NCBI RefSeq assembly: GCF_003334315.1
Contig: NZ_QOWR01000102.1
DNA length: 3,928 nucleotides
From: Escherichia coli
GTDB lineage: Bacteria; Pseudomonadota; Gammaproteobacteria; Enterobacterales; Enterobacteriaceae
Strand: one strand, 5' to 3'
The position numbers and the translations under genes are program-made. A model generated the notes under the pieces. The model saw nothing but the letters and a program-made list of their open reading frames with translations, searched no databases and was not told where the DNA came from. Every line of letters begins with the position of its first letter. The first letter of the stretch is position 1. Positions 1 through 3,928 of the stretch are shown here, in pieces.

Positions 1-492
1 ATTCCAGCCGAACGCGAACCTCTGCCTGGCGTAAAATTCTCACACCGGGGCTCCAAGATGCGAACACCACATCTTGTGCCACTCAGCAAACAGGCTGTAG
101 CCATACTGACAGAACTTCAGACATGGGCAGGTGAAAATGGTCTGATATTTACGGGAGCACATGACCCGCGTAAACCAATCAGTGAAAACACCGTAAATAA
201 GGCACTGAGGGGTATGGGATATGACACAACCCAGGATGTCTGTGGGCATGGGTTCAGGGCGATGGCGTGCAGTGCGTTAATAGAATCAGGTTTGTGGTCC
301 CGTGATGCAGTTGAACGTCAGATGAGCCATCAGGAACGCAATGGTGTACGTGCTGCTTACATTCATAAAGCAGAACATCTGGAAGAACGCCGACTGATGT
401 TACAGTGGTGGGCCGATTTTCTGGATGCAAACAGAGAAAAATTTATCAGTCCATTTGAATATGCAAAGATTAATAATCCATTAAAACCGTAA
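1..492 (+). CDS. int: P4-type tyrosine integrase (site-specific recombinase), C-terminal catalytic portion; 5' end lies upstream of the window
   Basis: Frame 1 is open from base 1 (IPAEREPLPGVKFSHRGSK precedes the listed Met at 58) to the TAA at 490-492. The translation carries the tyrosine-recombinase box II pattern HGFRAMACSALIESGLW and the catalytic Tyr context VRAAYIH, plus the C-terminal LMLQWWADFLD tail I recognise from P4-like (IntA/IntB-type) integrases. Only ~164 aa are visible, so the gene is partial in this window. Confidence 0.85.
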   Translation: MPAEREPLPGVKFSHRGSKMRTPHLVPLSKQAVAILTELQTWAGENGLIFTGAHDPRKPISENTVNKALRGMGYDTTQDVCGHGFRAMACSALIESGLWSRDAVERQMSHQERNGVRAAYIHKAEHLEERRLMLQWWADFLDANREKFISPFEYAKINNPLKP

Positions 493-537
493 TCCTCCCG
501 GGCAAATGCCCGGGAACTACTCCAGGATTATTTTTTT
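493..537 (+). terminator. Candidate intrinsic terminator downstream of the integrase gene
   Basis: Perfect hairpin CCCGGG-caaatg-CCCGGG (497-514), flanked by a complementary outer pair AATCCT (491-496) / AGGATT (524-529), followed by a T7 run at 531-537. The 9-nt spacer between inner stem and outer pair makes this a non-canonical geometry. Confidence 0.4.
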
Positions 538-660
538 GTTAAAAAAGGCAAAACGATATTAACTGATGTATTAAATGTTTACCGGATTGCTCCCTGCAGG
601 GGGATTATCAGAATCCGCAGTTATTCGTTATTTATATATATTCAATAAAAAGCAACATCA

Positions 661-694
661 TAAAAAATCCCGCACTCACAGGGTGATGCGGGAT
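661..694 (-). terminator. Candidate intrinsic terminator for the minus-strand phosphoethanolamine transferase gene
   Basis: 12-bp GC-rich stem with one bulge (667-679 pairs with 683-694, 3-nt loop). On the minus strand it is followed directly by a T6 run (complement of the A6 run at 662-667). It lies ~120 bp downstream of the minus-strand stop at 812-814. Confidence 0.45.
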
Positions 695-814
695 AACTGA
701 CGTAAGGAATGCTGCCGGGATTTGGTGGTCCCTTGTGCTGATATGAATACAGATTCTATTCTATACAGAATCCTTTTCAGTACAAGAGACTGTATTACTG
801 TTTGCCATATATGA

Positions 815-2281
815 TTACCTGTGGTCCGGAAGAATCAGAGGCTGCGGTTTCAGACTGTCTGCCGGCACATTTTTCTCTCCGTTAAAAACCATAACGGGTT
901 CATTATCTTCGTCTGTCAGCGGATTGAATGGCAGTATATTTTCGGTACGAATACCGGTCAGCCACTGAAAAATGCCTGCGAAATGACGGGCACTGATTTT
1001 TCTGCTGACGGACTGATGAGACGTGATGTCACTGGCGGTAATAATCAGGGGAACGCTGTAGCCTCCTTGTATATGGCCATCATGATGAACAGGATTAGCA
1101 CTGTCGCTGACCGACAGACCATGGTCAGAAAAGTAAAGCATGGCAAAATGACGGGAGTGCCGGCGAAGGATACCATCAAGCTGACCGAGAAAGTTATCCA
1201 GTTTACTGATGCTGGCGAGGTAACAGGCAATCTTTCGGGGATACTGCTCCAGGTAATGATTCGGCCAGGAGTTAAGTCGGTCACACGGATTCGGATGAGA
1301 GCCAATCATGTGCAGGAATATCACCTTCGGAGAGGATTTATCCGCCAGTGCACGTTCTGTTTCCTGTAACAACAACATGTCATCCGTTTTACGGGAAGCA
1401 AAGCTGCCTTTCTTGAGGAAAACGGTATGCTCCGCATCAGAAGCAATAACAGAGATGCGTGTATCATGCTCCCCCAGTTTTCCCTGATTGGATATCCACC
1501 ATGTGCTGTATCCTGCTTTTGCTGCCAGCGCCACCACGTTGTTGCCGGAGTCAGGGTTCTGCTCATAGTCATAAATCAGTGTCCGGCTCAGGGAAGGTAC
1601 GGTACTGGCTGCTGCCGATGTATAGCCGTCAATAAATAAACCGGGAGCCGTATTCAGCCATGGTGTGGTTGGCACGGGATAGCCATATACCGACATATAA
1701 TCCCTGCGCACACTCTCACCAGTAACGATAACAATCGTGTCATACAACGGTGTTCCCGGCAGGATTTTCCAGTTGTCAGCCCCGTGCTGACTCAGTTGTT
1801 TATAACGCTGCATTTCACGCAATGTGTCAGTTGTTCCCACAACAATTCCTTTAACCATCCGCAACGGCCAGCTGTTTACAGAGCATAATACGAATAGCAG
1901 CAGTGCCAGCCAGTTACGGTGACCGCGGTGGTGTGTCCGCCAGAAAATCACCATGAATACCAGAATCGCGGCACTGACCAGAAAATGATAAACAGGAATC
2001 ATCCCGGTAAACTCTGCAGCCTCATCAGCCGTGGTCTGCAGCAACGCGACAATAAAACTGTTGTTGATTTTACCGTACGTCATACCCGCAGGCGCATACA
2101 GTGCACAACAGAACAGAAATAACAGCACTGTAATGGATGTGAGGGTATTTCTGTGTGCAAGGAGAAGAAGGAGAAACAGAAGCAGCACATTTCCTGTGGC
2201 ATTCTTCTCAGTGTATCCGCATGCAATTGTGATTATTACGGAAATGGATTTGCCCCTATATTTCCAGACACCTGTTATCAC
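815..2281 (-). CDS. Phosphoethanolamine transferase family membrane protein (YhbX/OpgE/EptA-like, sulfatase-fold), 5'-truncated by IS2 insertion; likely pseudogene
   Basis: 488-aa ORF with an N-terminal hydrophobic region (several predicted TM segments, e.g. [47 protein letters not shown]) followed by a periplasmic-type catalytic domain. Motifs align with the EptA/MCR pattern as I recall it: [13 protein letters not shown] (nucleophile position), [12 protein letters not shown] (cf. HQMGNHGPAY) and [10 protein letters not shown] (cf. MLYVSDHGES). The first 12 codons (2245-2281), including a GTG start, lie inside the IS2 right inverted repeat, so the native N-terminus (an estimated 50-100 aa including TM1) is missing. 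Native sequence spans 815..2244. Confidence 0.8.
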
Positions 2282-2285
2282 TTAA
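2245..2285. repeat. IS2 right terminal inverted repeat
   Basis: TGGATTTGCCCCTATATTTCCAGACACCTGTTATCACTTAA matches the ~41-bp IS2 right inverted repeat recalled from the canonical element, with one difference I can see (C for T at 2271). Confidence 0.75.
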
Positions 2286-3161
2286 CCCATTACTGGCCTG
2301 CTGCCGCAGATATTCCCGTGGCGAGCGATAACCCAGTGCACTATGCGGATGCCATTCGTTATAATGCTCGAACGCCTCTGCAAGGTTCTTTGCTGCCGTT
2401 AACCCGTCTGGTTTAGGCATGATACTGATGTAGTCACGCTTTATCGTTTTCACGAAGCTCTCTGCTATGCCGTTACTCTCCGGACTCCGCACCGCCGTGT
2501 TCTTCGGTTCAAGCCCCAACATCCGGGCAAACTGCCGTGTTTCATTAGCCCGGTAGCATGAACCATTATCCGTCAGCCACTCTACTGGAGACGCCGGAAG
2601 CTCGTTGCCGAAGCGGCGTTCCACCGCTCCCAGCATTACGTCCTGTACTGTTTCACTGTCGAAGCCGCCCGTAGTGACTGCCCAGTGCAGTGCCTCACGG
2701 TCACAGCAGTCCAGCGCGAACGTGACTCGCATTTTTTCTCCGTTATCACAGCGGAACTCGAACCCGTCAGAGCACCATCGCTGATTACTTTCTTTCACGG
2801 CCACTTTGCCAGTATGTGCCCGTTTCGATGGCGGTACAGCGGTTTTTCGCTCAAGCAACAGCGCATTCTGGCGCATGATCCGGTAAACACGTTTGGCATT
2901 GATCGCAGGCATACCATCAAGTTCGGCCTGTCTGCGAAGCAGCGCCCATACCCGACGATAACCATACGTGGGCATCTCTCCGATAACATGGTGTATACGG
3001 AGAAGCACATCCGTATCATCTGAGTGACGGCTGCGGCGACCATCTTTCCAGTCATCGGTTCGTCTGAGAATTACGTGCAACTGCGCACGCGACACCCGGA
3101 GACAACGGCTGACTAAGCTTACTCCCCATCCCCGGGCAATAAGGGCGCGTGCGCTATCCAC
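2256..3161 (-). CDS. insD: IS2 transposase OrfB (InsD), DDE integrase-like catalytic domain
   Basis: 301-aa [37 protein letters not shown]...NRCLEI, near-identical to the canonical IS2 InsD I recall, with scattered substitutions. GTG start at 3159-3161 immediately after the A6G slippery site. In IS2 this frame is normally expressed as an InsC-InsD fusion by -1 frameshifting. Confidence 0.9.
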
Positions 3162-3484
3162 TTTTTTGCACGCCCGTATTCAACAGCTTCTTTAAGGAGT
3201 TCATTTTCCATCGTTTTTTTGCCGAGCAGGCGCTGGAGTTCTTTAATCTGCTTCATGGCAGCAGCAAGTTCAGAGGCAGGAACGACCTGCTCTCCTGCGG
3301 CCACAGCAGTAAGACTTCCCTCCTGGTATTGCTTGCGCCAGAGAAATAACTGGCTGGCTGCCACACCGTGTTGCCGGGCAACAAGGGAGACCGTCATTCC
3401 CGGTTCAAAACTCTGCTGAACAATAGCGATCTTTTCCTGTGTAGTACGCCGTCTGCGTTTCTCCGGTCCTAAGACATCAATCAT
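3119..3484 (-). CDS. insC: IS2 transposase OrfA (InsC), helix-turn-helix DNA-binding protein
   Basis: The listed ORF (3119..3529) begins with 15 codons inside the IS end. The canonical InsC start is the internal Met of [47 protein letters not shown]..., placing the start codon at 3482-3484 and giving 121 aa. It overlaps insD by ~43 bp, as in IS3-family elements. Confidence 0.85.
3161..3167 (-). promoter_or_regulatory. Programmed -1 ribosomal frameshift slippery heptamer (A AAA AAG) at the insC/insD overlap
   Basis: The minus strand reads GCAAAAAAGTGGATAGC; the A6G heptamer sits in the insC/insD overlap where IS2 and other IS3-family elements are known to frameshift to make the OrfAB transposase. 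Confidence 0.55.
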
Positions 3485-3529
3485 CTGCTCTCCAATGACT
3501 AGTCTAAAAACTAGTATTAAGACTATCAC

Positions 3530-3928
<399 letters not shown>

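Follow-up and report, generated by a model that had tools for sequence, protein, structure and literature searches.

The window analysed here, a stretch of Escherichia coli DNA of 3,928 bp, is the entire draft contig QOWR01000102.1 of assembly GCA_003334315.1 (100% identity), and its first base falls inside an open reading frame. This raises the question of which gene the contig end has cut, whether that gene marks the edge of a genomic island, and, if it does, which tRNA gene lies beyond the edge and what the island would need in order to move. Because the window is the whole contig, the gene is interrupted by the contig end and not by the choice of window. Taken as a whole, the evidence is best explained by window bases 1-492 being the C-terminal catalytic third of intP4, the P4-type integrase gene that sits at the tRNA-proximal edge of islands at pheV and pheU, which in E. 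coli are two identical genes for tRNA-Phe, and we hold this reading with high confidence.

Frame 1 of the plus strand, read from base 1, meets its first stop (TAA) at 490-492 and comprises 163 sense codons and the stop, close to the approximately 164 integrase codons counted in a first-pass annotation of the sequence. The product is identical to residues 259-421 of the 421-residue protein WP_032249794.1, and the N-terminal domain thus lies outside the window, as that annotation had also stated. Profile searches with the fragment returned NCBIfam PRK09692 (E 2e-25) as well as PHROG 1 and 216, both described as integrase (E 5e-23 and 7e-23). In an alignment with phage P4 Int, residues R238, K277, H341, R344, H368, and Y378 are all conserved, and all except R238 are encoded within the window (Table 1); R238, the first catalytic arginine, lies upstream and is seen in relatives only. 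The first-pass annotation had considered that the frame might instead be an internal piece of a longer, unrelated gene. However, the frame shares its stop codon with full-length integrases, its alignment with them and with P4 Int runs from end to end, and its profile matches are confined to the integrase C-terminal domain. The end-to-end alignment and the domain matches refute the unrelated-gene case, to which we assign a negligible probability.

Table 1. Features of the 3,928-bp window, with positions, strand, and the basis of each assignment.
Feature	Position	Strand	Basis
P4-type tyrosine integrase, 3' end	1-492	+	Translation, profile matches, identity to full-length relatives, phage P4 Int alignment
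Integrase K277	55-57	+	Aligns with P4 Int
Integrase H341	247-249	+	Aligns with P4 Int
Integrase R344	256-258	+	Aligns with P4 Int
Integrase H368	328-330	+	Aligns with P4 Int
Integrase Y378	358-360	+	Aligns with P4 Int
Hairpin (489-531) followed by T-run	489-538	+	RNA fold; begins at integrase stop codon
AT-rich spacer (~38% G+C) between convergent integrase and transferase genes	493-814		Composition, 322 bp
Terminator-like hairpin for transferase gene	669-682	-	Terminator scan
Phosphoethanolamine-transferase-family gene (Sulfatase domain, EptA/CptA-like)	815-2243	-	NCBIfam matches, alignment with intact 499-aa homologue
IS2 (IS3 family; orfA/orfB, programmed frameshift), lacking ~47 bp of far end	2244-3529	-	Relatives' copies
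IS1 fragment, 322 bp, truncating IS2	3530-3851	-	BLAST to IS1 in fetched loci and E. coli genomes
Exactly 77 bases of another repeated element	3852-3928		Match to relatives ends at 3851

The kinship with phage P4 that had been proposed from the fragment is borne out by the full-length integrases of related contigs. The complete protein from one of these (L014), which is 100% identical to the window where the two overlap, aligns with P4 Int (NP_042035.1) at 54.6% identity over 97% coverage (E 8e-153), and the full-length protein in relatives is composed of Arm-DNA-bind_3 (PF13356), Phage_int_M (PF22022), and Phage_integrase domains. P4 Int has the same three domains, the same R-K-H-R-H-Y set, and the same family-specific segment, 'IPAxRE...GV.(F/Y)S.RG.KM'. 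The att core lies 150-200 bp upstream of int both in P4 and in the tRNA-Phe islands; in the phage, the attP core is ≈150 bp upstream, with arm repeats in between. The two proteins differ in that P4 Int is longer, with 440 residues and an extended C-terminal tail as compared with 421 residues for the island integrase. P4 integrates into leuX, not tRNA-Phe.

The sequence identity and the shared att-to-int geometry would also be expected if the gene came from an intact P4-like phage satellite or prophage and not from a degenerate genomic island, but the surroundings of the gene speak otherwise. Unlike in P4, no phage genes lie downstream of the island integrase. Genes for P4 replication, capsid size, and regulation are absent after int in all fetched relatives, where the neighbors are instead the transferase gene, an outer-membrane protein gene, insertion sequences, defense systems, and autotransporters, and the window itself holds only the transferase and stacked insertion sequences. 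Given this lack of phage genes, we reject the satellite reading, which we regard as extremely improbable, and treat the gene as the integrase of a genomic island.

The hairpin that begins at the integrase stop codon has a folding energy of -22.5 kcal/mol (z = -4.7), with an equally good fold in 0 of 200 shuffles, and together with the T-run that follows, it probably serves the integrase gene as an intrinsic terminator. A simple terminator scan misses this hairpin because its inner loop exceeds the scan rules. The first-pass annotation had assigned bases 1-540 to the integrase end; the integrase itself stops at 492, and the rest of that span includes the probable terminator. That annotation had also placed the tRNA gene outside the window, and our search of the window for tRNA genes was indeed empty. 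An Rfam scan of the window found no family.

Beyond the terminator, the spacer between the two convergent genes is an insertion hot spot in relatives, where IS30 is found at window position 538 (L008) and IS1 at 579 (L027-L029) or 774 (L025 and L026). L012 carries an IS3-family element at window 638-645, flanked by an 8-bp duplication, and the insertion at 638-645 in L013 is larger, spanning ≈3.5 kb and containing a gene for a group II intron reverse transcriptase. The transferase gene lacks its first 23 codons, which IS2 has replaced, such that the called reading frame (815-2281) starts with 12 IS2-derived codons and encodes a 488-residue fusion. Many relatives retain an intact 499-residue transferase; in ATCC 8739, the pheU copy is frameshifted and no more than a 75-nt remnant is left at pheV. 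Because the gene is broken in the window, a phenotype is unlikely. The transferase::IS2 junction was found in none of the 5,426 complete E. coli genomes searched. The window IS2 is 99.5% identical to copies in L001, L003, L005, and L006, and a comparison of three full copies set its ends. The stack is nested, with IS2 abutted by the IS1 fragment and the IS1 fragment in turn cut at 3851. We read the final 77 bases (3852-3928) as a k-mer overlap where an assembly-graph edge ends; the element to which they belong shows a weak match of 26 nt close to ISEc8 sequence in EDL933 (L033 2532-2557).

The 488-residue transferase::IS2 fusion is on record in eight contigs, the window and seven others, and provides a marker of the window's closest relatives. 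We examined six of the seven marker-sharing contigs, and four of these (L012, L013, L014, and L015) reach past the integrase. Identity to the window is 100% for L014 (over 3,615 bp) and L015 (over 3,533 bp), and 99.8-100% for L012 and L013 over the aligned segments. In all four, the integrase gene is intact, with 421 codons; the full-length frame of ≈400 residues that the first-pass annotation had proposed looking for is thus present in the relatives. In every fetched locus that extends far enough, the integrase ATG follows the end of a tRNA-Phe gene (GAA anticodon) by exactly 197 bp. The flanking genes identify the locus as pheV in L012 and L013 (yqgA-speC) and as pheU in L014 and L015 (yjdC-dsbD-cutA-dcuA-aspA). 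Window base 1 corresponds to integrase nucleotide 775, which would put the end of the tRNA 972 bases upstream of base 1. This position agrees with the earlier expectation of a tRNA and attachment site just upstream, within 1-1.5 kb, and the variable cargo that relatives carry downstream of int agrees with the earlier placement of island cargo on that side.

Because the contig stops at base 1, the tRNA and the integrity of the integrase in the source strain are extrapolated from these relatives. On this basis, the source-strain integrase is probably intact. The pheU locus is somewhat more likely than pheV, the pheU-type arrangement being slightly favored because the spacer is uninterrupted and the pheU-type relatives are 100% identical to the window. 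Carriers that share the identical 3' end of the integrase gene vary over its 5' two-thirds, with 12-24 differences. The 197-bp stretch from the tRNA to the ATG (for example, L001 7030-7226) is nearly invariant across relatives. A hairpin directly follows the tRNA in this stretch, and a GGGTATA..GGGTATA motif occurs in tandem ≈50 bp ahead of the ATG; these elements might represent arm-type sites for the integrase or its promoter.

Why the contig should stop within this gene is a question that other assemblies help to answer. In at least eight independent assemblies, contigs start exactly at window base 1 and run into differing downstream contexts (including L023 and L025-L029), and one further contig (L017) starts at window base 56. 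Most of the base-1 contigs end 73-77 bases into IS1, and L025 ends ≈130 bases in. This pattern of contig ends bears the marks of 77-mer assembly-graph edges. Window bases 1-77 are perfect integrase sequence and not insertion sequence, and the last 77 bases are foreign. Had the contig bordered an insertion sequence, it would open with bases of that element; as its first 77 bases are integrase, the branch point falls within the integrase gene itself.

The most likely cause of the stop is a tangle in the assembly graph produced by a second, paralogous copy of the integrase gene. Genomes with two integrase copies do occur: ATCC 8739 and E308 each have one at pheV and one at pheU, and CP062889 has an additional copy that is truncated at its 5' end. 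We compared seven paralogous alleles with the window, including the second copies of these three genomes, and none is identical over bases 1-77 with a mismatch at base 78. Instead, all seven differ from the window at base 27, and their longest shared runs extend over bases 28-155 or 28-128. Because no sampled allele fits the 77-mer prediction, a repeat as the cause of the break is something that we infer.

A different explanation for the contig end is that the source integrase is a pseudogene, truncated at its 5' end or interrupted, with a real break in structure at this point (for example, a deletion or the insertion of an IS element), in which case this edge of the island would be dead. Such lesions have parallels, since the CP062889 copy without an N terminus adjoins IS1, RM9088 matches window bases 1-99 only, and PSS-11 retains a 106-bp integrase remnant. 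The contig does end within the gene, and its upstream partner was not found: no recorded protein exactly matched the N-terminal part predicted for the integrase (283 residues, three alleles). A contig abutting an insertion sequence, however, should begin with ≈77 bases of that element, as is seen at the other end of the window and at the ends of L026-L029. Moreover, the same break base recurs in eight assemblies with varied downstream structure, which argues for a shared feature of the graph and not a strain-specific lesion, and the gene is intact in 4 of 4 longer contigs with the same IS2 marker. We therefore consider a pseudogene unlikely, and favor a graph tangle within an intact integrase gene.

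We turn now to the attachment sites and what they imply for mobility. By analogy with P4 Int and the integrases of pathogenicity islands, the enzyme would bind arm-type and core sites and cleave with Y378, and the attP of the circular island would recombine with the 3' end of tRNA-Phe. Integration in this manner would regenerate the tRNA and leave attR, a direct repeat, at the distal island end, and excision would involve the integrase, attR, and a directionality factor. In relatives, the attL core consists of the last 23 nt of tRNA-Phe (TTCGATTCCGAGTCCGGGCACCA). An ungapped search for attR gave false negatives, and we repeated it allowing indels, with up to 4 edits, because the usual attR has a 1-nt deletion according to the literature.

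The direct-repeat check that the first-pass annotation had suggested was run in five related islands and gave a mixed outcome. The attR sequence (TTCGATTCCGAGTCCGG-CACCA) is found at the far end of the E308 pheU island, ≈27.5 kb from attL, and in the BREX-bearing island of PSS-11, where it adjoins yghD. At up to 4 edits, it was not found in the remaining three, namely the pheU and pheV islands of ATCC 8739 and the pheV island of CP062889. The earlier proposition that an intact integrase decides whether the island can be mobilized is thereby qualified: an intact integrase would not decide mobility by itself, with attR absent in three of five related islands. By the same analogy with known integrases, mobility would need attR and an excisionase in addition to an intact integrase. 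Genes of the AlpA family occur in related BREX-bearing islands.

In E308, attR at the distal end of the pheU island (L035 38126-38507) gives way to 133 bp resembling the spacer downstream of the tRNA (92% identity) and then to a decayed integrase remnant (68% identity), directly ahead of cadC. This arrangement is evidence of an older island beneath the present one, as would result from tandem accretion at pheU.

The marker-sharing contigs also show that one module can be found at either tRNA-Phe gene. The integrase, transferase::IS2, and IS1 module lies at pheV in L012, L013, and L036-L038 and at pheU in L014 and L015, with 99.8-100% identity. The presence of the identical IS2-scarred module at both loci implies that its tRNA-Phe locus changed after the insertion of IS2. 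We tentatively propose, as a possibility that falls well short of an even chance, that the module was moved by integrase-mediated excision and re-integration or by homologous exchange or inversion involving the pheV and pheU islands, which lie in opposite orientations. Under the excision and re-integration route, the island would still be active. The pheU contig L015 has the same integrase allele as the pheV contigs L012 and L013, and the allele of L014, also at pheU, has 12 differing positions, all within nucleotides 252-637. This pattern suggests homologous exchange with different crossover points or island relocation, and the mosaic 5' regions of the integrase gene hint at the exchange or inversion route. 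If this is true, the recurrent contig break in the integrase could mark strains that carry both copies.

To place the locus among E. coli islands more broadly, we surveyed the occurrence of the integrase and its surroundings. The integrase segment at window bases 1-200 is present in 3,358 of 5,426 complete E. coli genomes, and the yjdC-pheU-int arrangement occurs in 1,299 of the 5,426 (at ≥80% query coverage). Window bases 1-820 are 100% identical in 18 complete genomes among the matches listed. The identical integrase protein follows pheV in ZH48 and about ten further genomes with very different cargo, and CP062889 has the same geometry at pheV. At pheU, the window-type allele is found in ATCC 8739, and more divergent alleles with the same tRNA spacing are found in E308 and CFT073. 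The 197-bp spacing is likewise kept by divergent alleles in TUM1881, AZ159, EDL933, and ST648. Sampled alleles, including those of CFT073, EDL933, and ST648, are 88-95% identical to the window integrase segment. The cargo of the tRNA-Phe islands is strain-specific, in that carriers of the identical integrase protein differ in what they carry.

The integrase tail of the window is therefore a correct identification of a known and very common feature. Nhu et al. (2024, PLoS Genet) describe a P4-type integrase gene, intP4, that adjoins pheV and is the sole conserved gene of GI-pheV (PMC11537424). The same study reports that GI-pheV cargo is modular and separated by insertion sequences, that the direct repeats are 23 or 19 bp long, and that 34% of the islands are without attR and are shorter (PMC11537424). 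A review lists many islands at pheV and pheU, describes excision by an integrase together with a directionality factor, and discusses cross-talk between island integrases (PMC7545054). The window, taken together with its relatives, resembles GI-pheV and the pheU islands in its integrase gene family, in a site immediately 3' of tRNA-Phe, in a 23-bp attL core, and in modular cargo separated by insertion sequences. We see no substantive difference from those islands, and the combination of allele and cargo in the window is found at pheV or pheU depending on the strain.

P4-like integrase islands at pheV or pheU likewise include she/SHI-1 (PAI pic/set; Shigella and E. coli), PAI V536, PAI I and II of CFT073, and LEE variants, and in some relatives of the window's island, the cargo includes a protease autotransporter like those of pheV and pheU pathogenicity islands. 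Unlike those pathogenicity islands, the window and its closest relatives are without a recognized virulence module and contain a broken transferase gene, insertion sequences, and BREX instead. Past the stack of insertion sequences, the island of this lineage carries a complete type 1 BREX system (brxA, brxB, brxC, a GmrSD-family gene, pglX, pglZ, and brxL; L012 1-7114 and L036 1-14765). A walk toward the distal end of the lineage island by way of PglZ reached brxA, near a contig end; BrxB was too widespread to extend the walk. The pheU island of ATCC 8739, which has the same integrase, carries Druantia-like helicase and methylase genes and a type II Zorya system, and other islands with this integrase carry a 1,363-residue protease autotransporter or filamentous-phage genes. 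The tRNA-Phe islands act as slots for defense and virulence cargo.

Together, these observations assign an orphan contig of 3.9 kb to the tRNA-proximal edge of an island at pheV or pheU, a placement of little import beyond annotation that nonetheless accounts for a short contig ending within a gene. An integrase tail at the edge of a contig is a reliable flag of an island boundary. The useful cargo of this lineage, as seen in relatives, is the BREX phage-defense system. Of mild interest is the presence of the IS2-scarred module at both tRNA-Phe loci, which implies relocation after the IS2 insertion or recombination between islands.
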